This document shows positions 8,750-36,704 of a stretch of DNA of 64,000 nucleotides, in pieces. The notes beneath the pieces were generated by a model that worked only from the letters and a program-made list of their open reading frames with translations, did no database searches and had not been told where the DNA came from. The stretch's first letter is position 1; every line of letters starts with the position of its first letter. Made by a program: the position numbers and the translations under genes. Source of the DNA: Alphaproteobacteria bacterium (lineage in GTDB: Bacteria > Pseudomonadota > Alphaproteobacteria > Caedimonadales > UBA9215); contig JAACSN010000010.1 in assembly GCA_009993885.1 (NCBI GenBank), forward strand, positions 16,945 through 80,944, given 5' to 3'.

Positions 8750-8858
8750 TTCAATATTTTCTCCAAAAATTGTTTTATATTTAATAAACATAAAATCTAT
8801 ACTGAAAAATTTCTTCAGCCGAAAAGAGGAGGTCTCAATAAAACCTTTGATACCGTTG

Positions 8859-8912
8859 GGGATAGTGGTGGGCGCTACAGGATTCGAACCTGTGACCCGC
8901 TGATTAAGAGTC
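8859..8912 (-). repeat. ICE attachment repeat, integrase-proximal end: orphan copy of the 3' part of tRNA-Lys
   Basis: 54 nt identical to 55574-55627. Identity extends to 8852 with one mismatch. It stops inside the anticodon stem-loop, and no tRNA 5' half is present here. Confidence 0.9.
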
Positions 8913-9042
8913 GGTTTCTCTATAATTAAGAAATACCAATAAAATAGCCATGAAACCCAATAAAACAAAAGGATTTCGGAAATTTTATAATCCTGTTCGA
9001 CCACATTCAATCACGTTAAATACACCCTGAATTCGTTTCAAA

Positions 9043-18011: not shown

Positions 18012-18027
18012 TCTATATCTCTTTCTC

Positions 18028-18315
18028 TCAAACCGACTTAGCAACCGGCTGTGCTTTTTGATCAATACATTTAGTGTTTCGAGGCTTTGTAAATTGAAAG
18101 ATGGTTGCAGCTTGAAGCCACTTCTCCTTTTGATCTTTTGGTGAGCAGCTCCAAGAATCTTGCACAATGCACGCGGCTAGTTGCGGCGTGAATTTGTCAC
18201 CGATTTCTGAGGAGAGATATTTTAGAAGATGTTGAGCTTGTCGTTTTTCGAGGTCTTTCTTTTTCTCTTTAAGCTCTGCAATCTTAGAGTCGATTGCTTG
18301 TAGGGATTGAGGCAT
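18028..18315 (-). CDS. traC: Ti-type TraC-like relaxosome accessory protein
   Basis: Small coiled-coil N-terminus (IAELKEKKKDLEKRQAQ). First gene divergent from traA, immediately upstream of traD, as in Ti-plasmid traCD(G)/oriT/traA loci. Sequence-level similarity was not verified. Confidence 0.5.
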   Translation of the reverse strand: MPQSLQAIDSKIAELKEKKKDLEKRQAQHLLKYLSSEIGDKFTPQLAACIVQDSWSCSPKDQKEKWLQAATIFQFTKPRNTKCIDQKAQPVAKSV

Positions 18316-18430
18316 GATTGCTCCTTTTCATATTGAAACTAGAGCTTCCGATACCCACTTTTTAACCTAAGGCCAGAATATCAAGCCTCCCTGTAATGTA
18401 AATAAAAAAAATAATCCGTCTGTCCTAAAA

Positions 18431-18510
18431 GCATTTGCAAAATGCTTGAAAGGCGCGCAGATACGTTGCATAATGCAACTATACGCTTTGTCGCAAGCGA
18501 CGTACCCTCA
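18431..18510 (-). promoter_or_regulatory. Candidate oriT (inverted repeats plus a MOBQ-like nick motif on the minus strand)
   Basis: Inverted repeats at 18431-18445, 18465-18479 (gttgcat-a-atgcaac) and 18490-18501. On the minus strand the second repeat is followed directly by GTATCTGCGCGCCTTTC, which resembles remembered RSF1010/pTiC58 nick regions (...GTAAGTGCGCCCT / ACGTATAATTGCGCCCT). Confidence 0.45.
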
Positions 18511-18537
18511 CAATCCCCAGACTTTACACGGAGTTCA

Positions 18538-21500: not shown

Positions 21501-23637
21501 TCTCAAATTTGACGATCAAATTGAGGTGAAGAAAACAGAAGCTCCAGAGACGAAAGAGAAGCAGGAGACACTAGAAAAGCAAGTTGAAGCAGTCGTACCT
21601 ATATCTCCATTTGCTTCAGCATCAAAGAAAGCTGTTCAGCCTAAAGAAGAGCTGCCTACCACTAGCCCTCCAGTGGAGCCGGTTGTTGATACTATAGTTT
21701 CTGAGCCAGACAAAAAGACAGCTCCTGAGGCAGGAGAAAACAGAAAAGCGGATGTGCCCAAAGCTGAACAAACTGTTGTTGAGACTCCACTCAAACAACA
21801 AAAACAACGGCCAGACCGCAAGCAGAAACTACCCACGCAAGACTTCCAAAAGCTTATAAGAGATGTCGAAGGGGCCATCCGCATTGAAGATCTAGCAAAG
21901 GATGTTTTAGGGGCTCGAAATCTTAACACCAGCTTATCTAATTCTTCCCAACTAAGGTTTGGGCGTCAGGGAAGTTTGTCTATTGAGTTAAAGGGGCAAT
22001 ATGCAGGTTCTTGGAAAAACTGGGAAAATGATGAAAAAGGCGGCCCCTTAAAGCTCATTCAAAATGAAAAAGGATTAGATTTTAATGCGTCTCTTGCCTT
22101 TGCATCAAACTACTGCCGAGGAAGTATTGCAAAGGATATTGATAATTTCTTAAAGGGCAAAAAAGGGCGAGAGCTTTCTCCTGCTGAACGTAAAGCTCAA
22201 GAAGCAGCCTATAAAGCAGAATGCCTTAAACAAGAAGCAGAAACACTGCGTATTAGTGATGCAAAAGTTCAAGACATCCAAGCACTCGTTGCAAAGGCTC
22301 ATCCCCTTACGGGTACGCCCGCAGAAACTTATTTGCGAAAAGAACGCGGCATTCAAGGTGATCTACCAGAGTCCTTAAGGTACCTAGCGCCAAAAACCTC
22401 ATTTTCCTATAAAGGAAAAAGCATCCCAATAAAAAGTGGTGCGCTACTATCGGTTGCAACGGATCGTCACGGTGTGATTAAAGCTATTCAAATAACTCAG
22501 CTCACAGAAGATGGAAAAAAAGCTGTTGGATTTGATGGGGCTAAGCTACCAAAAAGAACCTATGGCGTTCAAAAAAGCTCTTTTGTAGAGCTTCAAAAAG
22601 GAAGTCTTAAAGATCCTATCATTCTATCTGAAGGCATTGAAACAGCGCTCTCGGTGAAAGAAACAGGAATTAAAGGAAGAATTTTGTGCTCCCTTGGAAC
22701 CTCTAATGTCGGTAATCTTGACGTGAAAGGTCGAGATATTGTTATCGCAGCAGATTGGGATGGCAGCTTTGAAGTGCAATCTTGGAAAGCAACAGAGAAA
22801 GCTAGGGTAGGTCTTGAAGCTAAAGGAAATGCTGTTTCTTATATTCTGCCCATAAAAGATCCATGGAAAACGCCAGAATTGACCTCCGAGTTAAGAAATG
22901 GAAAACTGGATTTTAACGATCTCTTAAAACAAGAAGGTGTAAACTCAGTAATAGATCGTGTATCAGATCGACTCCCCGGGGTTATTGGCACGATGTCATC
23001 CTCTAGGGAACTTCAAATTAAGGATTCCAATGAAAGACAAGAAAGTAATCCCCTTTCCGAAAAACAATCTACTGACCCTCGGGTTAACCTGTCAGCAGAT
23101 CACGCCAAGGACCCGGATCAGCTTTTGGCGCAAATGGACAAAGCAACTTCTCAAGAAGCGGCCTTAAAAGGCAATATCCTCGCTTACTTTGAGCAGGAAC
23201 TTTCGAAACCAGAAAATAGAAACTGGAACAAAGAACACGTCCTAGAGGACGTTCAGAAGAACCCTCTTGATGCCCTTAGCTGGTGGCATAAAGACTGTGG
23301 CGGCAGTGCGTTCGACCCTAACAAATCTCTGAATGATCAGCCTTCTAATTCACAGACTGGCAGCTCTTTGGACGATTCCCTAAAAATCCCTGAGGATGAT
23401 TTTGCAAAAGACTTCGCCAAAGAGCTTAAAATTTTGGATGACAGCATCGAACGCGTTTCTCATGAGCAAGGTTACCAAGGTGCTTTTGCCAATTATACCC
23501 AACAAAGAGAAAACCTTCTAAAGGGCCTTGATGGTGCTAAAATAGAAGAACTCAAAGCACACGAACCAGAGCTAGCTCATCGCATTGAAGAATGGCAAAC
23601 CTTAGAAAAAATTCGTGAGATAGGCTTAGGATTATAG
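18538..23637 (+). CDS. traA: Ti-type TraA: MobA/MobL (MOBQ) relaxase, RecD/TraA-like helicase and C-terminal primase-associated/Toprim domain
   Basis: Start trimmed to the ATG at 18538 (GGAG RBS; MALAHTRLKVFSRS...SLAYRAG with the relaxase Tyr). His motif HFDVDKEGNRKPHCHAVM. Walker A GYAGAGKTT (nt ~19732) and Walker B VLDEAG. C-terminal LRFGRQGSLSIELKGQYAGSWKNWENDEKGGPLKLI, then Toprim ILSEGIETALS ... IAADWDG (nt ~21860-22940). Confidence 0.9.
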   Translation: MALAHTRLKVFSRSSRRTVGSLAYRAGVCLLDKETGELHDYSKKQVHSVDLLIPEDAPQWAQDLQKKIAENRTAGVQELSDIAEAAEKRKDSQVYREYEFSLHRELTDAQNKELALKFLQEQFCSRGMMVKANFHFDVDKEGNRKPHCHAVMLTRRLEEHGPSKLKDRSWNHKDLATEWRKEFCNYSNEAFKKLGLDIVLDPRTYAEQGINIEPQTKLSRNTLEIEQRHGVNPKDILSTPVTTRGQDFQQISLRNLYKIIDNPKIVLEDISKQQMTFMWGDVVKFLARHIDDQALFERVCLKLQSSEELVCVKEGGSLSQRVFTTKTRLEEETRFVENVRSLKHSHTHSVDPTVVQSVIDSTNHAFQERSKKPKASLSDDQVRAIRHMASSNQLSFIEGYAGAGKTTVMRGMKEIWEANGYKVYGLAPTGRASDNLADCGISSQTVDRFLRSYEHGQNQLNSKSILVLDEAGMVSSKNFTALIEAIKELGVKLVACGDRGQLSPVEAGAPFRLAINEIGKADLTTVLRQKVPWQSQATSLFGEGKTEDALRLYGEHGRIKIVEESLPATIVEQYNISRRITGNIAHEMNQDIERAKEHGEELPFKKHHDYGLFIDWKNTRDTCTKEIFQNIKTYKDVMKEMGVDGVDFCNKVINHPQKITQEYDKYRLAKKLEVDWRIDVTHTCDPRLETKKELISDWFKSTQDHPEAKQAMMAYSNRDVLHLNMMARQLKKESGEIGKDEFTYTIERNDGEELGTRKIILEERTFSKGDQIVFTENNTGLGVRNGTLGQITSLDKSKITATFKEEGVEKEVSFSPNLYKRFDNGWALTIHKNQGATVDLAFKLASFEEYKNLSYVGMTRHEKDAKLYGSDFDFYRDEKIYDRLGRHQDKLSSLDYLSPEDSEKLLKSERDRLNKTFEAVGRKLEAVGYVGGRAWGQLCDKFLGRTPESNLIRVDYEALHYHKTEATRADEVLRGIKYDDSILSRDVILKFDDQIEVKKTEAPETKEKQETLEKQVEAVVPISPFASASKKAVQPKEELPTTSPPVEPVVDTIVSEPDKKTAPEAGENRKADVPKAEQTVVETPLKQQKQRPDRKQKLPTQDFQKLIRDVEGAIRIEDLAKDVLGARNLNTSLSNSSQLRFGRQGSLSIELKGQYAGSWKNWENDEKGGPLKLIQNEKGLDFNASLAFASNYCRGSIAKDIDNFLKGKKGRELSPAERKAQEAAYKAECLKQEAETLRISDAKVQDIQALVAKAHPLTGTPAETYLRKERGIQGDLPESLRYLAPKTSFSYKGKSIPIKSGALLSVATDRHGVIKAIQITQLTEDGKKAVGFDGAKLPKRTYGVQKSSFVELQKGSLKDPIILSEGIETALSVKETGIKGRILCSLGTSNVGNLDVKGRDIVIAADWDGSFEVQSWKATEKARVGLEAKGNAVSYILPIKDPWKTPELTSELRNGKLDFNDLLKQEGVNSVIDRVSDRLPGVIGTMSSSRELQIKDSNERQESNPLSEKQSTDPRVNLSADHAKDPDQLLAQMDKATSQEAALKGNILAYFEQELSKPENRNWNKEHVLEDVQKNPLDALSWWHKDCGGSAFDPNKSLNDQPSNSQTGSSLDDSLKIPEDDFAKDFAKELKILDDSIERVSHEQGYQGAFANYTQQRENLLKGLDGAKIEELKAHEPELAHRIEEWQTLEKIREIGLGL

Positions 23638-23778
23638 ATATCAATCTTTATGCTGTATACGTTTTCGCATTTCTTTTTTGTAGTCTTGTTGGCACATTTT
23701 GTCAAAAAACAATTATCTTGACGGTGCCCCCAGACAGCAGCTTATGATAACTTATAGAAAAATTGAAAAGAATATTAA

Positions 23779-26700
23779 ATGGTGAGAAGACTCTATTTCC
23801 AAAAATCAATTAAGGAGCTTGAAGATATTTTTGCACGGAAAAGTAGTGATTGTAATGTACTTGCCGACCTAAAAAGCGAGCTAGAGTTTCGAAACACCAA
23901 AAGAGCACTGTCGCTGAAGGTTAAAGTGATTGATATGCTTCAAAGCCTCAAAAAGGCAGTACCAAAAGGAGAAACATGGCATATCTCTGAAAAGCCAGCA
24001 CAAATGACCATAGAACATCCATCGACAGAGCCAACGAGTCCTGAAGTCAAAAGAACTACTTTAAAGCGCAATGATTTTGGTCCCAAACCAGCCATGGAAA
24101 ATGCCCCTTCAGATATACTTCAAGCATGGACTGCCCTCGAAGTACTGTCTCCGCAAGGCTACAAGAATGAAGCGGACTTAGCTGCTGGTGATAAATCTAG
24201 AATCGCACGTTTCGATGAAAGAGACCTACCTTGGAAGCTGGGCGAAAGATCGCGACCGAAGAAGCGACTTTATTACGAACTCATTTTAGGTTCTATCGCT
24301 CTTGCTCCTGCCGTTGAAGAACTCCTGAAACTCTACTCCGATGATAGACCAGATAAGCCAAGCATGAAAGGCTTTTGCCCGATTGCTACCATACTGCTAG
24401 ACAAGGAGGGTAGACCACTAGAGGAAGAAACCTCAGCTGCAATATCAAGTTTTGCATGGGGGGTGCCTATCGCTTTGCAAGGCGATTTGAAAAGCCTTGC
24501 TGATTGGCCACAAAAAGAAAAGCAAATCCTATCTACCTTTCGGAAGCATCTTATTAGGCGGGATAGCAATAACGAAATTATCCCTCTTACGAAAAGCCAT
24601 ATCACAGAGTTGTTTGATCATCTCGTTGCCGCTTTGAGTCTCGTAGGCCATGAGATAAAAGCTCCATACTTCGCATTGCGTCGCTTTGAATATTTTGCTA
24701 GCAAGACTCCGCCCGAGCCAGGACTGCTGAACTCGTTTTTTCTTGAAGATCTTTCACTCGCTCTAACATTGCACAACAATAATAATCTCCCACATGCCCT
24801 TAAGCATTATCTGGGAGTCTCCAGCCCCTTACAGCAAACGGACTTGCTGAAAGATGACGCAGGCTTGCAGCAATTACTACAGCCAGCTTATACGCCACTT
24901 GGAAGATGGCCCGGAAATGGACGCCATCCTCTCGCATTGCTTCAACAAGCAGCAGTCAACGCTTCAGATAAACGACTGTTGGACACCGGAATTTTGGCTG
25001 TGAATGGCCCGCCAGGTACAGGTAAAACTACACTGCTTCGGGACGTTGTGGCCGCGCGGCTAATTGAACGTGCAATGGTGATGAGCGAGTTCAAAAGGCC
25101 ATCTAGCGCATTTATCCCAACAAACCAAAGCTTCCAAAGAAGCGGAGCAAAGATTGTGCTTCACAAGTTAGATGATCGACTCAAAGGCTTTGAGATGGTG
25201 GTCGCATCATCCAACAATAAAGCGGTGGAAAACGTAAGTGCTGAGCTGCCTGCATTGGAAGCTATTGCACAAGATGCGACCAGCCTTCGGTATTTCAAAA
25301 GCATCTCAGATAAGATTCTTGGGCGTGAAAGCTGGGGTACAATCGCAGCTGTACTTGGCAACTCTTCTAATCGATACCTGTTTTCGCAGGCTTTCTGGCG
25401 CGACGAAGAGAACGGGCTTTCTACCTATCTTAATCACGCAAGTGGACTGCCACAGACTGTTTCGGAACTACAGGAAAATGGTCCGTCGATAATACGTAAC
25501 CGTGAAATCATAGATAGTGAACATCCTCCTGCGAACGCGCGCGAAGCACTGGTACGTTGGGAAACGGCGCGTGCAGATTTTCTCGGTGCGCACAAAGCAT
25601 CGACAGAGTCTCAAAAAACTCTTCAAGCCATTCACAAAAACCTTATTTTTCTAGCAAGGATCATTGCTGAGATGGAGGTTCTGGAAAAACAAATCGCATT
25701 ATCTGAAGAAGAAGCAAAAAGCCTTTCACCTTCGATTGCGGATGCGCAGGAACAGCTAGAGTGCGCAGATAAAGCACTCAAAGAAAGCGAACGAGCTCAG
25801 AAAAACAACCTTGTGCACCGTCCAGCTTTCTTTGCTCGCCTGTTTCGAACAGGGCAATTCAAATACTGGCGATCTCACCATGATGAGCTTTCAACGACTG
25901 CGCTCAAAGATAAAAATATAGCCGTATCGTACAAATTAGAGCTCGAAGAACTTCGAGCAAAATTATCAGAGAGGCATCGATCTATTGCCGAAGCAAAAGC
26001 TCAGCTTACAAGCCTCGAATCTGAAAAGACGAACCTGGAAGAAAAAATTGAAAGTGCTAAGGCTGATCTGGGCATCCCTATCCCTGATGCAGATTTTTTC
26101 GCTCTGGATCATGAAAATATCCAGATGGCCAATGTATGGTTTAACGCCGCTGAGCATCAATTGCGTGATCGGGTTTTCGAAACGGCCATTGCTTTGCACC
26201 GTGCATTCATCGACTGTGCGGCTGATCCGCTCAGACAGAATTTATCTATCTTCACAGAGAGTTTTTGTACACGCTCCTTTGGCACGTCGCAAAAGGATGA
26301 TCTGATTGCTGATTTGTGGTCGTCATTCTTCCTTGTCGTGCCAGTGGTCTCGACAACTTTTGCATCTGTCCACAGGATGTTTTCACGTCTACCCTCCGAA
26401 GCGCTTGGCTGGTTGTTGGTTGATGAAGCCGGTCAAGCCCTTCCTCAAGCTGCGGTCGGCGCGATGATACGAACAAAAAGATCAGTTGTAGTGGGTGACC
26501 CGTTGCAGATCGAGCCAGTAGTGACCCTTCCCAGAACCTTAACCGAAGAAGTTTGCAGGTTTTTCGGGATTGATCCTTTGAAGTACAATGCGCCCGACGC
26601 ATCGGTGCAGACGGTAGCAGATGCTTCGAGCATGTACTGCGCAAGATTTCCGATAGGAAGCGGGCATAGGGATGTGGGTGCTCCACTTCTTGTGCATCGC

Positions 26701-27279
26701 CGCTGCGAAAGTCCCATGTTCGATATCTCTAACGAAATTGCCTACGCAAACCTTATGGTGCAGGCGAAAAAACCAACCTCTGCGCATTCAATTCTAGGGT
26801 TTTCATGTTGGATAGATGTTGTGGGTAAGCCTGGGCCGGATAAATGGTGTGCTGATGAGGCAGTTGTCCTCATAGACATGCTTCGTAAACTTCGAGGTTC
26901 TGGGGCTAGATCTGATCTCTACATCGTGACACCATTTGTAATTGTGCAGAATAATCTCAGGCAAGAATTGCTCAAAAGCGGCGTTTTGGAGGGCTGGACG
27001 AAAAACCCCAAGGCATGGGTCTGGGAGCATGTTGGTACGGTCCACACCGTACAAGGACGGGAAGCTGAAATTGTCTTTTTCGTCCTTGGTGCCCAAGGTT
27101 CCTCACAAAATGGTGCGCGTGGATGGGCGGGTGGCAGGCCAAATCTCGTAAATGTAGCAGTAACTCGTGCGAAAGCTTCATTGTTTGTGATTGGTAACCG
27201 TCAGCTTTGGAAATCATCAGGGGTGTTCTCCGTGCTAGCCCGATTCTTACCTGAATCTTCGAAAGGTGGCGTGTCCTGA
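23779..27279 (+). CDS. Large SF1 (UPF1/DNA2-like) helicase with ~400-aa unknown N-terminal domain and coiled-coil insertion
   Basis: Motif I GPPGTGKTT (aa 410), Ia VVASSNNKAVENV, II LLVDEAGQA (aa ~880), VVVGDPLQIEP, VHTVQGREAEIVFF, NVAVTRAKASLFVIG. Heptad-rich aa ~600-770 between motifs Ia and II. Confidence 0.85.
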   Translation: MVRRLYFQKSIKELEDIFARKSSDCNVLADLKSELEFRNTKRALSLKVKVIDMLQSLKKAVPKGETWHISEKPAQMTIEHPSTEPTSPEVKRTTLKRNDFGPKPAMENAPSDILQAWTALEVLSPQGYKNEADLAAGDKSRIARFDERDLPWKLGERSRPKKRLYYELILGSIALAPAVEELLKLYSDDRPDKPSMKGFCPIATILLDKEGRPLEEETSAAISSFAWGVPIALQGDLKSLADWPQKEKQILSTFRKHLIRRDSNNEIIPLTKSHITELFDHLVAALSLVGHEIKAPYFALRRFEYFASKTPPEPGLLNSFFLEDLSLALTLHNNNNLPHALKHYLGVSSPLQQTDLLKDDAGLQQLLQPAYTPLGRWPGNGRHPLALLQQAAVNASDKRLLDTGILAVNGPPGTGKTTLLRDVVAARLIERAMVMSEFKRPSSAFIPTNQSFQRSGAKIVLHKLDDRLKGFEMVVASSNNKAVENVSAELPALEAIAQDATSLRYFKSISDKILGRESWGTIAAVLGNSSNRYLFSQAFWRDEENGLSTYLNHASGLPQTVSELQENGPSIIRNREIIDSEHPPANAREALVRWETARADFLGAHKASTESQKTLQAIHKNLIFLARIIAEMEVLEKQIALSEEEAKSLSPSIADAQEQLECADKALKESERAQKNNLVHRPAFFARLFRTGQFKYWRSHHDELSTTALKDKNIAVSYKLELEELRAKLSERHRSIAEAKAQLTSLESEKTNLEEKIESAKADLGIPIPDADFFALDHENIQMANVWFNAAEHQLRDRVFETAIALHRAFIDCAADPLRQNLSIFTESFCTRSFGTSQKDDLIADLWSSFFLVVPVVSTTFASVHRMFSRLPSEALGWLLVDEAGQALPQAAVGAMIRTKRSVVVGDPLQIEPVVTLPRTLTEEVCRFFGIDPLKYNAPDASVQTVADASSMYCARFPIGSGHRDVGAPLLVHRRCESPMFDISNEIAYANLMVQAKKPTSAHSILGFSCWIDVVGKPGPDKWCADEAVVLIDMLRKLRGSGARSDLYIVTPFVIVQNNLRQELLKSGVLEGWTKNPKAWVWEHVGTVHTVQGREAEIVFFVLGAQGSSQNGARGWAGGRPNLVNVAVTRAKASLFVIGNRQLWKSSGVFSVLARFLPESSKGGVS

Positions 27280-27303
27280 TGTTGGTCTCGTCGTATTCTT
27301 TCT

Positions 27304-27435
27304 GCCAAAGAGCTTAAAATTTTGGATGACAGCATCTAGCGCGTTTCTCATAAGAAAGATTACCAAGGCGTCCTCGCTAACTATACCCATCAAAACCAGC
27401 AAGCACAAACCCGTGGTGCTGAGTTAAAGTTTTAA
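27304..27435 (+). pseudogene. Degenerate extra copy (tail 2) of the traA 3' end
   Basis: 27304-27336 is identical to 23416-23448. Translation AKELKILDDSI*RVSHKKDYQGVLANYTHQNQQAQTRGAELKF* versus the TraA C-terminus AKELKILDDSIERVSHEQGYQGAFANYTQQ...; it has an internal deletion and an in-frame stop. Confidence 0.75.
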
Positions 27436-27559
27436 AGATCTAAATGAATTAGAGTTTAGCGCAAAGTTAAATCATGAACGCCAGAATAAGAAAAGTTTGG
27501 ACTAAGAGCTTGTCTTTAAAAAAGTGTTCAAGTTTGCCTGGGGTATCAACGCTAAATAT

Positions 27560-27587
27560 TTGACTTTTCCTTCCTTTAAATTATCAT
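27560..27587 (+). promoter_or_regulatory. Possible sigma70-type promoter for the 27612 gene
   Basis: TTGACT, 16-nt spacer, TATCAT, about 25 nt upstream of the ATG. Confidence 0.3.
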
Positions 27588-27611
27588 CTACATAAAAAAG
27601 AAGAATTTATT

Positions 27612-28418
27612 ATGGTTTCAAACAATCAAAATCAATCTAATTTAAATGAAAATTCCTTATATTTTCTTAATGAAAGGCTCGTCGCTGACGCATTCTGGGG
27701 TTTTGTTTATAAAAATAGCTTGAAAAAAACAGGTTTCCCCGAAAATATAAAAGACATCCCTAAAGATTTATGGTCACGTGAGCGTATAATTGATTTATTA
27801 AAAGAATATAAAATTACATTAAAAGCAGAGGGCGACCTAGAGGAGCTTATTGAGTCCATATATTTAGTAGGTTCTAATATAATTACTAAACATATGAAAG
27901 AAGGAAAAAACATAATAGGGCCTGTATATGTTGAGGACTTTAAAGAGTGCAAAGATCCATTTTTTAATTTTTCTCACCTTGTAAATCGGCTTAAAAGCGA
28001 CTCAAACGAAAACTGTGACTATTTACTGAAATTAAATGGTGACTATGAGCTATCAGGAGATTTCCTTTTGAGAACTCCATTACCCTCTGTGGTGCTATTA
28101 AAAGAAGAGCCTAAAAAAAAGATTAATATCATAATCCCAAATACAGAAAAGGCGTTAGGGTATCAGAAAACTCTTATTTTACCGATGCAAGAGTTATCAA
28201 CATTACCAAATAATAAAGAGGGGTATAAATACTTTGCAACAGGTATCTTTCATATTCCAACACAAATCCCTCATGATAAGTATTGGGCGAAATTAATTCC
28301 AAACAGTTTGTGCTTTTTAGAAGCCTTTAATGCAATCATAGCAAAAGGACAAATTGTGAAGAAAAAAAAGAAGAAAGACTTTTTTAAGAACGCTTTTTCA
28401 AGATTTTTTAAAAAATGA
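27612..28418 (+). CDS. Hypothetical protein (268 aa), visibly more AT-rich than its neighbours, Lys-rich tail
   Basis: Clean ORF with ATG start. No recognisable motif. Sits between two traA-tail remnants. Confidence 0.55.
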   Translation: MVSNNQNQSNLNENSLYFLNERLVADAFWGFVYKNSLKKTGFPENIKDIPKDLWSRERIIDLLKEYKITLKAEGDLEELIESIYLVGSNIITKHMKEGKNIIGPVYVEDFKECKDPFFNFSHLVNRLKSDSNENCDYLLKLNGDYELSGDFLLRTPLPSVVLLKEEPKKKINIIIPNTEKALGYQKTLILPMQELSTLPNNKEGYKYFATGIFHIPTQIPHDKYWAKLIPNSLCFLEAFNAIIAKGQIVKKKKKKDFFKNAFSRFFKK

Positions 28419-28452
28419 TGTATTTTACAAATCAGACTAACAAGGTGCCCTT

Positions 28453-28604
28453 GCAACTATATCCAATAACGCGAAGACCTCTTCAAAGGCCTTGATGACG
28501 CCAAGATAAAAGCACTCAAAACCCACGAGCCTGAACCAGCCCATCGTATCGAAGAATATCAAAATTCGCAAGCACAAGCCAGTGGGGTTGGTTTAGGAAT
28601 TTAA
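28453..28604 (+). pseudogene. Degenerate extra copy (tail 3) of the traA 3' end
   Basis: Translation NYIQ*REDLFKGLDDAKIKALKTHEPEPAHRIEEYQNSQAQASGVGLGI* aligns with the TraA end NYTQQRENLLKGLDGAKIEELKAHEPELAHRIEEWQTLEKIREIGLGL*. Confidence 0.8.
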
Positions 28605-28606
28605 GG

Positions 28607-29926
28607 TTACTCTTTTTTCTCAAAAATGCGTTTACCATTTTTATCTTCCCTTTTACTTGAGTACTGAAAGAATGAATAGAAACGTTGAGGGTGAGTTCCT
28701 ATAAATCCTCTGCAAATCACCTTGTTTTGAACAAACGCATCAACCGATAATTCGTTAGGATTTAGGTCTAAAGCAAAACTTTTTCTGTATGGACATAAGT
28801 ATATTATTTTTGTAATTCCAGCCGCTATGACTAATTTGCTGCATAGGTGACATGGAAAAGTTGTTGTATATAGAGTGCTACCGTGAAGCTTTACTCCTCT
28901 GCAAGCTGCTGTAGCAATCGCCGTTTGCTCTGCGTGGACATTTTGTGAAAATTCTAAAAGATCACCCAATCTGCTGTTTGTGAGGTAAGTCTTAACTTGT
29001 TCTTTATTGAGTTCAAATTTTTCTTCTAGTGAGGTGCTTAGATCTTCTATTAAGTCCTTTTTATGCCGTGCATTTGTATCATCGCCTTGTGTGTCACGAT
29101 AGACGCCACCATGGAATTTAGGCACATTATTGCAACCACTAGCCAACAATTCGCCATGTGAATCAACAATTGCAGATCCGACTTGGCGGGATTGATCAAC
29201 AGAACAACAAGCGGCTGTGTATGCCCAATTCATTGCTACTTCTTCTTCTGTCGGTGGCTCAAATAGGTTCTTTTTCAAAATCAGTTTCAAAAAACGTTTT
29301 ATTGGCTCTTTAAAATCATCACCTCTATAGTCATTGAGAAAATAGTCACAAAGAGGTAGTGTTTTAAGCATTTGTTGACCAATTCTACGATTTTCTTTTT
29401 TATCTGGAATAATAAGATCTTCTCCCTCATCTCGAATAATAAGATTTTGTATATACGCTTCTTTTAACGATTTTTCATCCAAGTCTTTTCTAAAAATAAA
29501 TTTTTTATTCTTCGTTTCTTTGAAATTTCCCCCTGTAAGCTCACCAAAAGTCTTTCTGCGCAAGCGTCGTCTTGCATCATTTCGAGAGGTGTGGACTCCC
29601 AATCCATAAAAATATTTGTTTTCATTTTTTAGCTCATTATATTCCTCTTCCCGTTTTAGATGACTTATGACTACAATGCTCTTCTCGCCTGTTTGCTCTT
29701 GCAGCTTTTCCTTAATTTTATTCAATAGATTAATATCGTTATTACCACTATCGATTTTCTCCTTTGTGCTAATGGGACTTCCTTTAATAAGTCCAGATAC
29801 TTTAACTTCCTGTACATTGTATCCAAGTTGTGATCCGCAAAATTCAATTTCAGAGTAGATATCATCAAAACGTGAGGCCACTCTTCCTACCAGTGCAATA
29901 ATAATAGGTTGTTCCGTTTTACTCAT
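28607..29926 (-). CDS. Anti-phage-type dCTP/dCMP deaminase (N-terminal kinase-like domain and C-terminal zinc cytidine deaminase; DcdV-like)
   Basis: The ORF-track start is TTG. The ATG at 29926 has an AAGGA RBS and an ATGA overlap with the upstream gene. N-terminus IIIALVGRVASRF..., central IIRDEGED...GQQMLKTLPLCDYFLN, deaminase core DQSRQVGSAIV...NVHAEQTAIATAA...TTFPCHLCSKLVIAAGITKIIY. Confidence 0.8.
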   Translation of the reverse strand: MSKTEQPIIIALVGRVASRFDDIYSEIEFCGSQLGYNVQEVKVSGLIKGSPISTKEKIDSGNNDINLLNKIKEKLQEQTGEKSIVVISHLKREEEYNELKNENKYFYGLGVHTSRNDARRRLRRKTFGELTGGNFKETKNKKFIFRKDLDEKSLKEAYIQNLIIRDEGEDLIIPDKKENRRIGQQMLKTLPLCDYFLNDYRGDDFKEPIKRFLKLILKKNLFEPPTEEEVAMNWAYTAACCSVDQSRQVGSAIVDSHGELLASGCNNVPKFHGGVYRDTQGDDTNARHKKDLIEDLSTSLEEKFELNKEQVKTYLTNSRLGDLLEFSQNVHAEQTAIATAACRGVKLHGSTLYTTTFPCHLCSKLVIAAGITKIIYLCPYRKSFALDLNPNELSVDAFVQNKVICRGFIGTHPQRFYSFFQYSSKREDKNGKRIFEKKE

Positions 29927-30225
29927 GATAAATCCTTCCAATAAAAATATGAAAATAAAGCAGCCGTCAGCACATTAAAGACCATCCAGATTTCTTTTGT
30001 TAAATGGATAGGGAGGAATGGATTAAAAAGAATAGCTACGGCAACACAAGACCAGAGTATCCAATCTTTTTCATCTGATATGTAGCGTAAATATGCGGTA
30101 AAGCCTCCTACTCCTGTGACGGCAATTCTTAAGAAAACATAATAACCATACGGCATTGGTAGCAAAGCAATTAAGGAAAGCGCTGCCACGAGTAGAAAAG
30201 GGATTTTGAGGTCAGAGATTTTCAT
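29923..30225 (-). CDS. Small polytopic membrane protein (100 aa)
   Basis: Three to four hydrophobic helices. Start overlaps the upstream gene by 14 nt, and its stop forms ATGA with the deaminase start. Confidence 0.65.
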   Translation of the reverse strand: MKISDLKIPFLLVAALSLIALLPMPYGYYVFLRIAVTGVGGFTAYLRYISDEKDWILWSCVAVAILFNPFLPIHLTKEIWMVFNVLTAALFSYFYWKDLS

Positions 30226-30916
30226 TTATTTGTTCTCCCCATATGAAGGGAATATCCAAATTTATTAATTCACCCTTTCGTTCTTTTGCAAAAATAGAAC
30301 TATAAATTTCTCTATAAATGCGATCATCTGGATCGACTTGCGATATTTCTTCTGGTGTAGCAACGCCTGATCTTGCATAGAACTCTTTCCCTGATACATA
30401 CCCTGGAAAGATTGAGTAATAAATTTTATCGTAAGCACTCTCCCTATCTCGGTGCTGTTCTAGGATATTCATAATGCTACAAACTCTTGGCCTTAGAGAG
30501 TTATAAAGAATCCCCGTGTAATAAAAATACATTAAATATGCCGTTAAAATTCTTAGGGCAAAAAACGCGCTCCACTGATTTATCTCTGTCAGAGAGTGTT
30601 TTAATAAGACATTACTATCTAAACATAGAAGTCTTTTTTTACCTCCCAGCCCCATTTTTTCTCTTCTCTTGCGCATGAGATCACAGTCTTGAGATTCAAA
30701 ATCCTTTAGTTGAAGATTATGCCAACGAACCATTGTTCCCATAAAATTCCCTAACTTATCTGCTGATATATCATTTGCTTCTAAAAGTGCAGGCATGTCA
30801 GCAAAAACTGACATTGCAAAGTTGGTTTCTAACAAACTAAGATCTTCAGGCGTTGCATTCTTTAAATAAGTTTCAAAGAATTTTAACCTTGATCTAGTTC
30901 TAAAATATTGAAACAT
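30212..30916 (-). CDS. Hypothetical protein (234 aa), first gene of the deaminase operon
   Basis: ATG with an AAGGGG RBS. One hydrophobic stretch (WSAFFALRILTAYLMYFYYTGILY). No recognisable family. Confidence 0.55.
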   Translation of the reverse strand: MFQYFRTRSRLKFFETYLKNATPEDLSLLETNFAMSVFADMPALLEANDISADKLGNFMGTMVRWHNLQLKDFESQDCDLMRKRREKMGLGGKKRLLCLDSNVLLKHSLTEINQWSAFFALRILTAYLMYFYYTGILYNSLRPRVCSIMNILEQHRDRESAYDKIYYSIFPGYVSGKEFYARSGVATPEEISQVDPDDRIYREIYSSIFAKERKGELINLDIPFIWGEQINENL

Positions 30917-30980
30917 CCCCTTATTTCCTAAAAAAAATTAAGCTGATAATCAAGGATATCAAAAACTTATTAAATAACTG

Positions 30981-31544
30981 TTAATTCTGCATAATCTCCT
31001 CATAGTACTCTTTCCAATATTCGCCCATTTTGCCCTTAAGGTTCTTTTGTTCCTGGGGCGATAGCTTTTTAAATGCATGGCGAAATAGGATGCCCTCACG
31101 TAGGTACTCAAAGTGGCGTTGGCTGAGGGAGTAGTTTACTTGTTGGGGGAAGAAATACCAGAGGATGGTTCCGCTGAGAAGACTCCCAAAGCAAAAGGCG
31201 AGGCAGATATATAGGCTCGCTTTTTTCATTTTTTTCTCTTGTTTTTGGTGGGAGGATTTGAGCTCTTGCATGAGGCCATCCACAGTCTCAGAAAGTTTTG
31301 AGAAGTGCTTTGAAAGGGATGTTGTCATCAACACCACCAACTCAGGATGGGAAGATTTTGTTGTTTCACGGATTGTATCCTCAACGTTCTTGCGGCACCC
31401 ATTGAGTTCGCTGATTTCATCTTGAAGTGATGTTTTTAACGCCTCCAATTCCTTTTTGAGCTGGATCGTTTCATCAACTTTATTTTGAAAAATTGTCGTG
31501 TTGCGATCAAATTTTCTCATGGCGTCTGTGAGGTCAGTTTCCAT
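30981..31544 (-). CDS. Hypothetical coiled-coil protein with one TM helix (187 aa)
   Basis: Heptad-rich N-terminal half, TM helix LYICLAFCFGSLLSGTILWYFF. Lies 12 nt downstream of the coupling-protein gene. Confidence 0.55.
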   Translation of the reverse strand: METDLTDAMRKFDRNTTIFQNKVDETIQLKKELEALKTSLQDEISELNGCRKNVEDTIRETTKSSHPELVVLMTTSLSKHFSKLSETVDGLMQELKSSHQKQEKKMKKASLYICLAFCFGSLLSGTILWYFFPQQVNYSLSQRHFEYLREGILFRHAFKKLSPQEQKNLKGKMGEYWKEYYEEIMQN

Positions 31545-31556
31545 AAAATGGGCTCC

Positions 31557-33263
31557 TTAGTTTTTTAAATCAAATGAGGAATGAAGGGATTTGCGATCGT
31601 GATAACTCATCTTGAGTTTTGAAATGGGGAACTTGCCTGGGAACTTTAGATAACAGGTCAGATCTGGCAATTGCGCCACCTCTGTTGGGAGTACAAGCCG
31701 ACGTCTGCTCTTTTGTTGATTAAGGGAAATTCCATCACGCATTTGGTGAGCACCATAAGAGAGACTTTCTTTTGCCTCTTCAATTTCTTCTTCCCCTAAC
31801 CATTTTGAAATTTGCTCACAGGCTTTTGATTCCTCGCTCCTAAAAAAGAACTTTGTGTTAAAGAGGTTAAGGATTGTTTTCGATCCGTTGTGGCCGTAAA
31901 TTTCATCGAACTGTGACATACTTTGAAGACCTGCAAATAGGCACGCTCCATATTTTCGTCCCTTGGATAAGAGAGCCTGAAGGGACTGTAGCTTCTGTAT
32001 GGCTGGCAACTCATCCATAATAAACCAAACACACCTTTCTTTTGATTCACTTTGTGACATTAAGAATGTGGATGCTGAATTAAAAACAGCGGCAATGAGA
32101 GGATTTAAGGTGTGGAGCATATCTTCATTGGCCGTCACGAAAATCCAGTTTTCTTTGCTCTCATCCCTGATCCAATCTGACAGAGAAAAACTTTTTTCTC
32201 CTTTTCCCAGATGTTTTAAAAACTGAACGCTACTGCTGAGGGTTGATCTGAAACTCAAAGTTGTTCGCTCACCCGCTGGGTCCGCAAAAGGATAAGCATC
32301 GGTTCCCCAGAAGAAGGCCCCAAATTCTTTCAAAGAAGATTTAATCAAAATGCGATGAAGTTCTTTCGGGGAAATATCCCGCTGTTGTGCTTTTTGAAGT
32401 CCTACGGAGAAGAGCTTTGCCGATCCATTTTGCCAGAGAGGATCTGAGTGCTCTCCGTTCTTGGGCACAATGGATTTAGCAAGGTGGTCAAATTGATATT
32501 CATGGGAACATTCATGGATTATATCCCACTTTGCTGATCGTCCATCAAAGGGATTGAGGATGACATCGCCCCGATCAGGGTTGTAATATTTTGAAATCAT
32601 ATCCCCTGTGGTATCTATCACGAAGGATCTTTGCTTCTCCTTTGCTATTTGCGGTAAGAGGTCATTATAGAGGTTTGTTTTACCTGAACCGGTCGTTCCA
32701 ACGGCGAGGATATGTTTTGTCTCAGAATTTTTTATGAGGGGGAGTTTTTCAACTTTCAAGTGAGAGGCTTTACGGCGTAATTTAATCATCCACTTCAGCC
32801 TAAAGGAAGAAACAAGACGTTGCCCTCGAAGGCGCTTGGATTTTAAACTTTTTCGTCCCTTTAGGCCCCAGAACAGCATCAGCAAAAGAAGGCATATAAT
32901 GGTTACATTGATAGAAGAAGTTACTTGCTTCTTAATGGTATCTTCCACATAAGATCGCATATTGTGGGTGTAAGGATGGTGGATAATATCGATTGCGCGT
33001 ACTTTTTGTGTGTAATACTCATCAGGCCAACTAACCATAAATCTATGACGCATTGAGTCACTTTTGTAAGGTAATATGAACTCAGCTTGATAGCTGGAGA
33101 GATACTGGCGCAAGATATAGCTTGGAATACTATTCCAAGTTTTCCAGGCCAAAACACTGCCGCCTATTAAAAAAGAAACAACAAGTCCAACACTGAGAAC
33201 TTGTTTAATCATCCTCAAGTTATGGATATGAAGTTGTCCGCCTCGAACTAAGTTTTTAGCCAT
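31557..33263 (-). CDS. traD: F-type type IV coupling protein TraD
   Basis: Two N-terminal TM helices, Walker A VGTTGSGKTN, Walker B WFIMDELP. Position downstream of traG. Confidence 0.85.
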   Translation of the reverse strand: MAKNLVRGGQLHIHNLRMIKQVLSVGLVVSFLIGGSVLAWKTWNSIPSYILRQYLSSYQAEFILPYKSDSMRHRFMVSWPDEYYTQKVRAIDIIHHPYTHNMRSYVEDTIKKQVTSSINVTIICLLLLMLFWGLKGRKSLKSKRLRGQRLVSSFRLKWMIKLRRKASHLKVEKLPLIKNSETKHILAVGTTGSGKTNLYNDLLPQIAKEKQRSFVIDTTGDMISKYYNPDRGDVILNPFDGRSAKWDIIHECSHEYQFDHLAKSIVPKNGEHSDPLWQNGSAKLFSVGLQKAQQRDISPKELHRILIKSSLKEFGAFFWGTDAYPFADPAGERTTLSFRSTLSSSVQFLKHLGKGEKSFSLSDWIRDESKENWIFVTANEDMLHTLNPLIAAVFNSASTFLMSQSESKERCVWFIMDELPAIQKLQSLQALLSKGRKYGACLFAGLQSMSQFDEIYGHNGSKTILNLFNTKFFFRSEESKACEQISKWLGEEEIEEAKESLSYGAHQMRDGISLNQQKSRRRLVLPTEVAQLPDLTCYLKFPGKFPISKLKMSYHDRKSLHSSFDLKN

Positions 33264-33345
33264 TTTTATATCCTTTTTACTTTGTGATGGGCGTTGAAAA
33301 TGTTAAACTGAGAGTAGAGCTAATAAGACTTTTCAGGGAAGTTAG

Positions 33346-33915
33346 ATGTCTAAATATGCACACTCCAAACAGAAACGTACTTGGATCCCAAAGTGGTTTA
33401 TCAAGGCCTTTGAAAATAGCGAGGCTTTTCACCCTTTGAAGACCATCAGCCGATTGACAGGGCTTATGTTTCTGCTGTTTGCCTTCCTGGTGATCAAGGA
33501 TCCCTTTATCACATTGATTGCCTTCCCCACAGGGATTCTGCTGATGGATGCAATTTTCTTTATTTTTAAAATGAAAGAATCTACCTATAAGTCTCAAGTA
33601 TTTTTTCGTATAGCTAAAACAACTCCAAAAAGTATGGATAAATATAATCTTTGGATGTTTTTGATTAGAAGCATTTCTTTTGCTATCTTCATTCCGTTCG
33701 GACAAATTTATGGCTATGGAGCGATTTGTTTCCTCTTCCCTCTCCTCGTAGCTCCCATCACAAGATTTGGGCGATTTGAACTCGCTTCTAGCCCTAAAAA
33801 TAATATTCCAGAGGCAAATTTGAACCAAGCTTCCATTGATGATCATATTAGAACATCGCCTGGAAATTTGGCTTCGCCTCTTTATGGATTGGCTGGTATT
33901 TTTCCAACGCGATAG
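33346..33915 (+). CDS. Polytopic membrane protein encoded antisense to the tra operon between traG and traD
   Basis: AGGGAAG RBS and four to five hydrophobic helices. The competing minus-strand ORF 33277-33924 has a Cys/His/Arg-rich antisense-type composition. Confidence 0.5.
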   Translation: MSKYAHSKQKRTWIPKWFIKAFENSEAFHPLKTISRLTGLMFLLFAFLVIKDPFITLIAFPTGILLMDAIFFIFKMKESTYKSQVFFRIAKTTPKSMDKYNLWMFLIRSISFAIFIPFGQIYGYGAICFLFPLLVAPITRFGRFELASSPKNNIPEANLNQASIDDHIRTSPGNLASPLYGLAGIFPTR

Positions 33916-33929
33916 TAAGTGCATCTACT

Positions 33930-36704
33930 TCATCCTCTGTTGCTCAGCTTTTTGAACTCTCGTTCTTCGGCAGTTTGTTCTCCAGATAATGATTTGACAG
34001 TTCCGCCAATATCACCAGCTCCTTTTTCAAATTGACGTCTAACGTTGGTTTGATTATTCCTGAATTGAAATTCCCCATTTCGTTGCTTATTATGCTCTGA
34101 CATGACAGCTCTTTGATTATCAATAGATCTATCTTGGAACTTTATTTGGTCTCTTGCCTCTGCTTTAATAACATTAACTTCCCCTGCTAATTGTGGAGCC
34201 GTTTTAAACCCTGCCATATCAATTTTGTTTTGCACAACATCTCGTCCAGTTTTGTTAATGGTAGGAACATCTGACATAAACTTTTGGATTTCCCCCTTAT
34301 CCAATACATGGTCGATATTACCAACCCTTGCACGTAACATTTCCTCTTTTCCTTTCATGAATCCACTTTTAAGACCATCGACTTCTCGCCCCCCCTTGTT
34401 TAAGAACGGTACGATGTCAGCCTTAGATAGACCTGTTTGCTTAGATACATAATTAAGGAAAGGATCGTTTTCATTTGCCATCCTTCCCACTTGTTTTTGA
34501 TCATTATAACTTTTCATATTTTCTAAATTCTTTGTTTTTGTATAAGAATGGTTATAAGCTTCAGAAGCTGCTTGTGTTTTATTAAAGCTGTGGGTCAAAC
34601 TATCTGTCATCTCATTTCCAGAAGAGTCTGTTATTTGTCCTCGATGATCCGTGGCGTATTGCGTTAGGGTTGAGAGGTTCTCAGCAAGTTGCTTTCCTTG
34701 TGTAGAGTTTTGAATTTTAGCAATCACCTCATTATTTGCTGCGCTTGTAGATGTGCTAGCAGATGCTCCTAATTCAAAACCAAGAATACTGCCACCAAAT
34801 CCACCGCGCGCAGTGGCATCAACAACTGTTTGAGCACTCACACCATGGTTCTTTGCAATATCGTTTATAAGGTTTTGAGTATCTGCGGCTGTCTTTTGGA
34901 TACTTGCTTGAGAGCTGGTGCTGGCTCCATTTGTTATTGTATTCCCATTGGCAAGTTTCTTGTTAAAAGAGAGGAGTTCACCTGACGTATCAGAAAGCGC
35001 ATCATTAAAGTTGTGAGATTTTTGCTCTGTTAACGCTTCAGAATCGCGGAGAGTATTTCCGATAGCAGAAGACATAACACCTGAACTTGAATAGCTCTCC
35101 CTTAAGGTGCTGGAATTTTCCGCAATATAATCATTGCCGTTAGCAGCATTTGTTATGGTCTGGCTTCCTGTGTTAAGACTACCTGCAAAGCCACTGCTAC
35201 CCACATGATTTTGTTGAGCAACAGACCTTGACGCAACACTTTCATTAAAGAAGTTTTGATTGCCCATGGAGATATTACCATCAGCGGCCTCTCCAGCATA
35301 CTTACTAGAAAGTCCTTGAAGGCCTGACGTTAAGCCACCAACAATTGTTGACATCACATAGGGAGATCCACTCACAACACCCCACGCTAAGACTGGAACC
35401 ATGAGTTGCATTCCAGCGGCCCAAGTTCCTACAGAAAACGCAGAATCAGAAAGACCAGATATTGTGGCGATCGTAAATCCCTCAACACCTTGCAAAGCAT
35501 CTTCTGATGATTTTCTAAGCCAAAACAAAGAGAGTGAATTAAGCATAGAGGACAGCACTGGCCAAAGTTGAAAACTGAACATCAGTTTTACAAACAACCA
35601 AAATTTGTTAATTCCTCCAGGCATGAAGTAAAAACCAACAATGATCACAAACAACAGACACAATAAGCCTAACATGGTGGCTTGAAGAAGAGGCATGGTC
35701 ACTGAGGACGTAAATGCATTCATCATGCCTGTCATTCCCTGTGTTTCCAAAGCTCTTGCGGCGTTAATAGAAACAAGCTCCGGATGAAGTCTTGGATATT
35801 TAAACTTTTCCCTAGAATCATCAAAGGCTTCTTTTTGAGCGTTCACCACCATCATTTGTTGGACTTGCTGTGAGGCTGATTTCGTTGACTTGGAAATCAT
35901 TTGCCACGCTTCTTGCATTATGGGTTTAAAGCCATCCATATCGACACCTTTTGGTCTAAAGCCAAAAAGCTTTGCCCCAAGGGCACTAAAACCTCGTTGG
36001 CCTTGTGCTGTCATGGCCTCTCGAATAAGAGGAGCTGACACTTTACAGGTTCTATAAGTCTGAGACCCGTCTTCATTTCGCCAATAGGTTCCAAGGGAGG
36101 GATGTCCATTTTCTTCAACCCAAGAAATAAGGTCATCACTTGTCCTGGCTGATTCTCTTTTCCCTCCAATGTTTGTTTTCAAATAGGGTAGCCAAATACA
36201 TTGGTCCGTCCAATCTTTTATGTTCTGACGAATCCGCGGATCGGCAATACGCAGGGTTCGAGCTTCTTTAGTTAATCTTGATGAAAAGGCAAAGCCTGTC
36301 TTTGTAAAACGCGACAAGTCAGCGGTCTGAAAAACATCTTCATAGGCTTCAACTAATGCTCTTGAAAACAGTGAAGACGCCCCAAGAATAGCCACAAGCC
36401 CAACGGGGAGATTATCAACGCGATCAGCCCCAAAAGTTGGATCAACTTCATCAACAATATTGAGAGTCGTGCGCGGAATAAGAAGGACATTTAAAAGGAG
36501 GAAAGAAGGAATGAACCATTTCTTTGCAAACAACCCAATGTCAACTTTTGCAAGAGCAATCATAGAGGCCCACATTAAGCCAATAAGAGTCGAGAAGCCC
36601 AACATTTTTCCCCAAAAGGGAAGCTCTGGATTGGTAAGATAGGCAACACCATTAAAGACATTATAAAGGAGATGGCCACCACCATATGTATGAAGAGTAT
36701 CCAT
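33930..36704 (-). CDS. traG: F-type TraG (mating-pair stabilisation; TraG_N membrane domain and long periplasmic C-terminal half)
   Basis: Polytopic N-terminal half, Ser/Asn/Thr/Gly-rich C-terminal half, 924 aa. TAATG coupling to traH. Gene order matches F. Confidence 0.8.
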   Translation of the reverse strand: MDTLHTYGGGHLLYNVFNGVAYLTNPELPFWGKMLGFSTLIGLMWASMIALAKVDIGLFAKKWFIPSFLLLNVLLIPRTTLNIVDEVDPTFGADRVDNLPVGLVAILGASSLFSRALVEAYEDVFQTADLSRFTKTGFAFSSRLTKEARTLRIADPRIRQNIKDWTDQCIWLPYLKTNIGGKRESARTSDDLISWVEENGHPSLGTYWRNEDGSQTYRTCKVSAPLIREAMTAQGQRGFSALGAKLFGFRPKGVDMDGFKPIMQEAWQMISKSTKSASQQVQQMMVVNAQKEAFDDSREKFKYPRLHPELVSINAARALETQGMTGMMNAFTSSVTMPLLQATMLGLLCLLFVIIVGFYFMPGGINKFWLFVKLMFSFQLWPVLSSMLNSLSLFWLRKSSEDALQGVEGFTIATISGLSDSAFSVGTWAAGMQLMVPVLAWGVVSGSPYVMSTIVGGLTSGLQGLSSKYAGEAADGNISMGNQNFFNESVASRSVAQQNHVGSSGFAGSLNTGSQTITNAANGNDYIAENSSTLRESYSSSGVMSSAIGNTLRDSEALTEQKSHNFNDALSDTSGELLSFNKKLANGNTITNGASTSSQASIQKTAADTQNLINDIAKNHGVSAQTVVDATARGGFGGSILGFELGASASTSTSAANNEVIAKIQNSTQGKQLAENLSTLTQYATDHRGQITDSSGNEMTDSLTHSFNKTQAASEAYNHSYTKTKNLENMKSYNDQKQVGRMANENDPFLNYVSKQTGLSKADIVPFLNKGGREVDGLKSGFMKGKEEMLRARVGNIDHVLDKGEIQKFMSDVPTINKTGRDVVQNKIDMAGFKTAPQLAGEVNVIKAEARDQIKFQDRSIDNQRAVMSEHNKQRNGEFQFRNNQTNVRRQFEKGAGDIGGTVKSLSGEQTAEEREFKKLSNRG

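Follow-up and report, generated by a model that had tools for sequence, protein, structure and literature searches.

A divergent AvcD/DcdV-type deaminase gene as probable defence cargo in a mosaic operon of a conjugative element at tRNA-Lys

In a stretch of 64,000 nucleotides (nt) of the alphaproteobacterial contig JAACSN010000010.1, hereafter called the window, three genes on the minus strand form a tightly overlapped operon, which encodes a protein of 234 amino acids (aa), a 100-aa membrane protein of the Pfam family DUF6804 and a 439-aa deaminase (Table 1). The deaminase gene is probably defence cargo of the AvcD/DcdV type, carried by an element integrated at a tRNA-Lys gene and placed in an operon of mosaic origin. 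A preliminary description of the same DNA had read the overlaps as a new control or sensing arrangement, in which the deaminase is joined to two membrane-associated partners. However, a novel three-component arrangement is not supported by conservation and, as far as sequences can tell, the locus holds a known kind of defence gene in an accreted operon.

Judged by its sequence, the 439-aa protein falls in the known AvcD/DcdV family of two-domain deaminases, within which it represents a short and divergent branch. The PADLOC dCTPase model matches it over residues 4-429 (4.5e-94, 314.5 bits), its alignment with proteins annotated by NCBI as anti-phage dCTP deaminase, the best named matches included, spans the full length, and its C-terminal dCMP/cytidine deaminase domain is recognised by Pfam dCMP_cyt_deam_1 (PF00383, 2e-17). 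The NCBIfam equivalog model for the 'anti-phage dCTP deaminase', NF041025, gives 277.9 bits in two stretches, which is under its cut-off of 400 bits. The family call of the preliminary description is thus borne out in substance, even though the NCBIfam cut-off is not reached, and the motifs it had listed are all present (IIIALVGRVASRF, RDEGED, GQ, LPLCDYFLN, HAE and PCHLC). In an alignment of 25 sequences, H331-A332-E333 and P358-C359-H360-x-C362 occupy invariant columns, the SRQVG motif is invariant as well, and the N-terminal domain aligns over its full length with the D...GQ motif kept (D175, G183 and Q184). The preliminary description had named a housekeeping dCMP deaminase as the identity that would overturn its reading. 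Such enzymes (ComEB/Dcd) have a single domain and some 150-190 aa, and this candidate is rejected on domain architecture and scores: the 225-residue N-terminal domain is common to the window protein and the defence family, and the ComEB model TIGR02571 reaches 41.9 bits against a cut-off of 219, over residues 329-388 only.

The branch to which the window protein belongs is sparsely populated. Among 5.8 billion protein clusters, P0002 is the sole close relative and, with 53%, the one other protein counted above 35% identity; the remaining matches are about 27-43% identical, and NCBI gives many of these the name anti-phage dCTP deaminase. The window protein and P0002 share an insertion of about 35 residues that is not present in the other aligned members, and in both the C-terminal tail, some 40 residues long, is missing. 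Where at least 90% of the members have a glycine in the N-terminal G-x-x-G-[SC] motif, the window protein has Ala17 and P0002 a threonine. Tal et al. reported that the substitutions G29A/C30A in the kinase domain's motif for nucleotide binding abolished defence by the E. coli AW1.7 enzyme; Ala17 would correspond to the mutated glycine, a correspondence drawn through an alignment that does not itself include the E. coli protein. With the window protein and P0002, the defence deaminases that deplete dCTP gain a divergent, short branch.

The systems characterised so far, AvcD/DcdV with AvcI/DifV from the Vibrio cholerae island VSP-1, V. parahaemolyticus and enterotoxigenic Escherichia coli, resemble the window locus in several respects. 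They combine an N-terminal P-loop-kinase-like domain with a C-terminal zinc deoxycytidylate deaminase domain bearing HAE and PCxxC, they reside on a mobile island, and a short element that directly adjoins the gene on its 5' side, on the same strand, is transcribed along with it. The preliminary description had summarised the family as a single protein gene with an upstream small RNA, in agreement with the papers of Hsueh et al. and Tal et al. For V. cholerae and three tested homologues, Hsueh et al. described an inhibitor RNA that measures about 150-300 nt. It is encoded directly 5' of the deaminase gene, with which it shares orientation and transcript; it lies inside a small ORF-like region (ORF, open reading frame) and shows no sequence conservation between systems. 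In contrast to these systems, the window protein is only about 30% identical to their enzymes, has 439 aa where those have roughly 500-580, lacks the C-terminal tail and carries alanine for the near-invariant N-terminal glycine; its 5' position is taken by a DUF6804 gene that overlaps the start codon and not by a non-coding ORF-like RNA gene, and the transcript holds an additional gene further upstream. With the defensive dCTP deaminase of E. coli AW1.7 (Tal et al.), represented by NF041025 and the PADLOC dCTPase model, it shares the domain order and a defence-like cargo location, but not the score (278 bits for the window protein versus the cut-off of 400).

The element that carries the operon is well delimited. 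A direct repeat of 71 bp, 94% identical between its copies at 8852-8922 and 55567-55637, marks its bounds, and the second copy overlaps the 3' part of a tRNA-Lys(CTT) gene (55581-55656, minus strand). Beyond the repeats the genes are chromosomal (BamB and SulP at one end, DnaK at the opposite end), so that the contigs of about 100 kb on which the operon is found are fragments of a chromosome and not a plasmid. Inside are an F-type type IV secretion system (TraG_N, TraD/TrwB) and a MobA/MobL relaxase of 1731 aa. Given the repeats, the integrase, the tRNA-Lys gene and the transfer genes, the operon is cargo of an integrative conjugative element (ICE). It occupies a slot between the end of the transfer operon, formed by TraD and a 187-aa gene, and the convergent relaxase gene.

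The 3' end of the relaxase gene (23416-23599) recurs as degenerate direct copies at 27304-27394 (86%) and 28438-28563 (76%), the latter lying just downstream of the deaminase gene and matching 23473-23599. These copies flank cargo modules, namely a 1166-aa helicase gene, a 268-aa gene and the deaminase operon, and they look like the scars of successive cargo insertions at the same spot. The helicase matches a PADLOC model for a Mokosh component (Table 1) and could add a second gene for defence to this cargo region; its first 380 residues or so had no match in Pfam or PADLOC except a weak one to PADLOC DruH (E = 6.9e-4, residues 10-63). For the 268-aa protein, no match was found in Pfam, NCBIfam, PADLOC or PHROGs. 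The placement on mobile elements and in defence islands that is typical of anti-phage dCTP deaminases is therefore found here too, in ICE cargo with a Mokosh MkoC-like helicase adjoining. There is nothing unusual in this with respect to the known cargo hot spots of F-type ICEs, in which the stretch from the end of the transfer operon (TraD) to the convergent relaxase gene is likewise variable, with contents that differ between elements (such as the related elements L001 and L004) and with duplication scars, and they provide the frame in which the arrangement can be explained.

The three genes are joined by two overlaps, which were read directly on the minus strand. One, of 14 nt (30212-30225, ATGAAAATCTCTGA), holds the stop codon of the 234-aa gene and the start codon of the 100-aa gene; the other is an ATGA (29923-29926) in which the 100-aa gene stops and the deaminase gene starts. 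The three ORFs, their coordinates and both overlaps are as previously described. A purine run resembling a Shine-Dalgarno sequence precedes each of the three starts. An alternative TTG start at 29941 would give a deaminase of 444 aa, and gene callers prefer the 439-aa form (P0001) on public contigs.

These genes are transcribed together. The exact sequence is present in many metagenomes and three metatranscriptomes from aquifers, and when the RNA contigs of the three metatranscriptome runs are placed on positions 18001-38000, almost all fall within 28446-30851. The junction between the DUF6804 and deaminase genes is bridged by RNA contigs (29635-30055), as is that between the 234-aa and DUF6804 genes (30030-30514, 30153-30653 and 29963-30254). 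The 3' ends of the contigs cluster in the three runs, at 28446, 28450 and 28475, and the 5' end of the transcript lies at or beyond 30851, where the contigs end. One transcript covers the three genes; it probably starts upstream of the 234-aa gene, and it ends about 130-160 nt past the stop codon of the deaminase gene. No RNA contigs from the three runs covered the TraD, 187-aa, 268-aa and helicase genes, which makes carry-over of DNA an unlikely explanation. The evidence consists of assembled contigs and not of reads, and expression levels are poorly reflected by the depth of contigs. The contigs are direct evidence that the divergent deaminase branch is transcribed in an aquifer community. 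One of the metatranscriptomes, X25, has an extra T in the sole contig that covers a run of six T (plus strand, 29395-29401) inside the deaminase gene. This would shift the reading frame between the two domains, and could be an error of assembly or reverse transcription, transcriptional slippage or a real variant.

Comparison with related elements indicates that three genes, each mobile on its own, have come together in the operon as a mosaic. The element L001 is 85% identical to the window at the DNA level over 32771-30232, which comprises the TraD, 187-aa and 234-aa genes in the same order. This homology stops 7 nt before the ATG of the DUF6804 gene and restarts at window position 28605, straight after the stop codon of the deaminase gene, and the slot between is filled in L001 by four unrelated genes, encoding proteins of 129, 167 and 201 aa and a lipase. 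In L004, DNA homology is confined to 30234-29954, which is the DUF6804 gene itself (85% identity), with a TerB gene upstream (4-nt overlap) and a short DUF4238 gene of 125 aa downstream. L002 has a homologue of the 234-aa gene (60%) directly followed by a DUF6804 gene with a frameshift, which a convergent gene truncates, and it has no deaminase. The 234-aa gene thus travels with the TraD-187 end of the element, the deaminase gene is an independent cassette, and DUF6804 is a promiscuous gene for a small four-helix membrane protein. TerB precedes DUF6804 also in L176, again with a 4-nt overlap and with another gene downstream, and a staphylococcal-nuclease-like (SNase) gene precedes it in L005, L006, L178 and L180 (4-nt overlap in the first two, 43-nt gap in the last two); the gene after DUF6804 varies from locus to locus in these pairs. 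As DUF6804 is found repeatedly behind TerB or SNase while the downstream gene changes, its partner is suggested to be the upstream rather than the downstream gene. Most likely, an older pair of 234-aa and DUF6804 genes, seen in the window and in L002, had the deaminase cassette packed behind it, and in the simplest history L001 later swapped everything past the 234-aa gene. The overlaps would then have arisen as junctions, when promoterless cargo was packed behind a pair that was already expressed; they would couple the expression of the genes but mark no co-evolved protein complex. The locus offers a worked example of an operon formed by accretion of cassettes in the cargo slot of a conjugative element, and a caution that tight gene overlap is by itself no sign of a functional system.

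The distribution of the three genes in other genomes points in the same direction. A hidden Markov model (HMM) search for DUF6804 and a phmmer search for the 234-aa gene found neither in the best 80 metagenomic deaminase loci (0/80), with the window as control scoring 2.7e-44. The upstream neighbours in these 80 loci are heterogeneous, with 26 divergently oriented and some short ORFs as expected for AvcI-like regions, and no multi-helix membrane protein was found among them. At the locus of P0002, the 354 nt of available upstream contig hold no DUF6804 and show no similarity to the window. Conversely, an alignment of DUF6804 against one genome per species found more than 500 relatives in many phyla, and neither the deaminase nor a 234-aa homologue was present within 6 kb on either side of the 80 best genomic DUF6804 loci, or on 31 viral contigs with DUF6804. 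Of 33 closely spaced upstream neighbours, at most 2 shared any one Pfam family, and of 32 downstream neighbours at most 1 fell in a given family; among the more than 110 DUF6804 loci examined, the pairing with a deaminase is unique to the lineage of the window. The loci of both close 234-aa homologues, L001 and L002, are without the deaminase, and the identical deaminase, as well as the trio, is found only on the contigs of about 100 kb with identical context. The co-occurrence check proposed in the preliminary description thus turned out negative; a lack of conservation of the partners next to deaminase homologues was what it had named as speaking against its inference of a new control or sensing arrangement, which accordingly is not borne out.

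If the deaminase acts as its characterised relatives do, a phage that shuts off host transcription would free it from inhibition, and the freed enzyme would turn dCTP and dCMP into deoxyuridine nucleotides and so starve phage DNA synthesis. Several observations weigh against the reading of the deaminase gene as a defence cassette in a mosaic operon. The scans sampled the best 80 loci each, with neighbouring genes assigned by a simple longest-ORF rule, and were not exhaustive; the P0002 contig is 1.8 kb long, so that the upstream view is limited to 354 nt. Ala17, the missing tail and the score below the NCBIfam cut-off imply that regulation may differ from that of characterised members. The G+C content is 35-38% in all three genes of the operon versus 41-43% in the flanking transfer genes of the backbone, which is compatible with a common origin. 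The coupling between the three genes is tight, and in this region of the element they are conspicuous as the block that is expressed. Finally, a distant relative of the 234-aa protein and the DUF6804 of L004 both precede DUF4238 genes, a defence-type gene in the case of the 234-aa relative, which hints at a loose functional network.

Some of these points could be taken to favour the model of the preliminary description, a single defence system of three proteins, in which the membrane protein or proteins sense perturbation of the envelope, or act as a protein antitoxin, and so gate the deaminase. Such a system is in agreement with the co-transcription and translational coupling, the lack of intergenic room for a separate small-RNA gene, the low G+C common to all three genes, the degenerate N-terminal motif and missing C-terminal tail of this deaminase sub-branch, and the 234-like and DUF6804 genes that precede DUF4238-type genes elsewhere. 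However, I consider it unlikely, as the partners are found neither in the sampled deaminase loci nor on the contig of the closest relative, the neighbours of DUF6804 are unrelated in more than 110 loci, 234-aa homologues occur without a deaminase and in one case with a decayed DUF6804, and recombination breakpoints fall at each gene junction. The 234-aa protein is moreover not clearly a membrane protein. Of the two membrane-associated proteins of the preliminary description, the 100-aa protein stands with its four helices, but in the 234-aa protein the only hydrophobic stretch, at about residues 117-137, peaks at 1.25 on the Kyte-Doolittle scale (19-residue windows), whereas about 1.6 is the threshold commonly used for membrane segments, and its membrane association is therefore not secure.

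The 234-aa protein belongs to a very small family. No match was found in Pfam, NCBIfam, PADLOC or PHROGs, a word-indexed search among the 5.8 billion clusters gave just two homologues, and when 1.84 billion representatives were searched exhaustively with a profile, only a fragment and a single distant relative were gained. The AlphaFold model of the family (three sequences) is all-helical but unreliable, with a predicted local distance difference test score (pLDDT) of 45.6, too poor for a fold search. The distant relative, a protein of 201 aa (profile E = 1.9e-11), is encoded in L172-L174 from marine metagenomes, where its gene overlaps by 11 nt that of a 124-aa protein matching the N-terminal part of DUF4238; this pair adjoins HigBA-like and RelB/ParE pairs and a Tn3 transposase. 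In L177, a protein of the same length, 234 aa, is encoded downstream of a DUF6804 gene; it was checked as a relative of the window protein and rejected. Another contig, L175 (JGI 3300025020), is identical to window positions 30540-30046, that is, the 3' half of the 234-aa gene and the start of the DUF6804 gene, and is joined upstream to an unrelated, oppositely oriented gene of the metallo-beta-lactamase fold. Either the assembly is chimeric here, or the contig represents a rearranged copy in which the 234-aa gene is truncated.

The 100-aa protein is a typical member of DUF6804, with the PYGYY and FNP motifs and four helices. The Pfam match is clear (8.5e-24, 84 bits against a gathering threshold of 27), and the AlphaFold model places the helices at residues 3-19, 26-49, 55-66 and 77-99 with a pLDDT of 92.6, so that the polytopic membrane protein of the preliminary description is recovered. 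Compared with relatives of 77-79% identity, 16-19 codons differ synonymously and 22-25 non-synonymously, which fits a protein-coding gene, and DUF6804 is evidently a real protein family under purifying selection. A fold search with the model against PDB and BFVD returned only generic four-helix bundles, none at E <= 0.001, and a literature search returned no paper mentioning DUF6804 and no described function.

In the characterised systems, the slot directly 5' of the deaminase gene, on the same strand and within one transcript, belongs to the RNA antitoxin; here it is taken by the 303-nt DUF6804 ORF. Alternatively, the operon could work as a type III toxin-antitoxin system like AvcID, with the DUF6804-encoding segment of the mRNA, or another part of the transcript, as an inhibitory RNA like AvcI or DifV, whose decay after phage-induced shut-off of transcription would free the deaminase. 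The position of the ORF is exactly that of the known inhibitors, which are immediately 5' in the same orientation, lie in small ORF-like regions that span about 170-300 nt and show no conservation of sequence. However, DUF6804 occurs as a bona fide protein family under purifying selection in the absence of deaminases, the DUF6804 region shows no excess of RNA structure (z = +0.70), positions 28400-31100 had no Rfam match at the gathering or at a permissive threshold, and no excess of RNA depth was seen over the region, depth of contigs being a poor measure. This explanation has little probability, similar to that of the three-protein system, and an RNA antitoxin embedded in the DUF6804 region is possible but unsupported; as the known antitoxins share no sequence, the absence of such an RNA is not provable by computation. 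The locus raises the question of how the deaminase is restrained when the RNA antitoxin slot is protein-coding, and whether a coding sequence can conceal such an antitoxin.

A further possibility, which I hold to be improbable, is that DUF6804 and the variable first genes (the 234-aa family, TerB and SNase) form a reusable, membrane-linked accessory module of mobile elements that gates or localises different downstream defence effectors. The effector could here be an AvcD-like deaminase without the usual N-terminal motif and C-terminal tail, and elsewhere the short DUF4238 proteins. If true, this would amount to a protein- or membrane-controlled version of nucleotide-depletion defence. Very doubtful is the idea that the deaminase mainly serves the element, as an addiction (post-segregational killing) module or as a modifier of the nucleotide pool that stabilises the ICE, with phage defence incidental: AvcID has been classed among toxin-antitoxin systems, which are modules that stabilise mobile elements, and the gene does sit in ICE cargo beside transfer genes, but the characterised relatives all protect against phages, the Mokosh MkoC-like helicase in the neighbouring cargo suggests a defence cluster, and a cognate unstable antitoxin was not identified.

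Table 1. Positions of the operon, its transcript and the surrounding element in the window.
Feature	Position	Strand	Remarks
234-aa gene, first of transcript	30212-30916	minus	very narrow orphan family
100-aa DUF6804 four-helix membrane protein gene	29923-30225	minus	overlaps both neighbours (14 nt upstream, ATGA downstream)
439-aa divergent AvcD/DcdV-type deaminase gene, last of transcript	28607-29926	minus	N-terminal kinase-like domain and C-terminal zinc deaminase
Intergenic leader, probable promoter and ribosome-binding region of the three-gene transcript	30917-30983	minus	upstream of the 234-aa gene
3' untranslated end of transcript	28446-28606	minus	includes degenerate copy of the relaxase gene 3' end
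Integrated conjugative element, about 46.7 kb, with the operon as cargo	8852-55637		repeats, tRNA, integrase, transfer genes
Tyrosine integrase	9133-10293	plus	
1166-aa superfamily 1 helicase (AAA_11/AAA_12)	23779-27279	plus	PADLOC Mokosh MkoC 1.1e-71, residues 380-1161
187-aa coiled-coil/transmembrane protein	30981-31544	minus	element backbone
TraD/TrwB-type coupling protein	31557-33263	minus	TrwB_AAD_bind 2.3e-119

The intergenic leader ahead of the 234-aa gene (TTAACAGTTATTTAATAAGTTTTTGATA...AGGA.ATAAG.GGATG) is kept in L001 and L002, with the conservation setting in exactly at the stop codon of the 187-aa gene. No strong sigma-70 consensus was found in it, and a scan for sigma-70 promoters and terminators performed no better than on shuffled sequence. 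L001 holds a further 51-nt copy of the leader (8537-8587, 84% identical to window positions 30957-31007), which precedes its next cargo gene, and in L002 the same leader precedes the 234-aa homologue in a different context. The leader could be a portable promoter or a sequence that marks cassette boundaries.

Between TraD and TraG, two long ORFs overlap on opposite strands (33346-33915, plus; 33277-33924, minus). Public gene calls conflict at 33277-33924: L090 has a protein of 189 aa called on one strand, L091 one of 215 aa on the opposite strand. This pair is covered by short RNA contigs as well, at 33379-33730.

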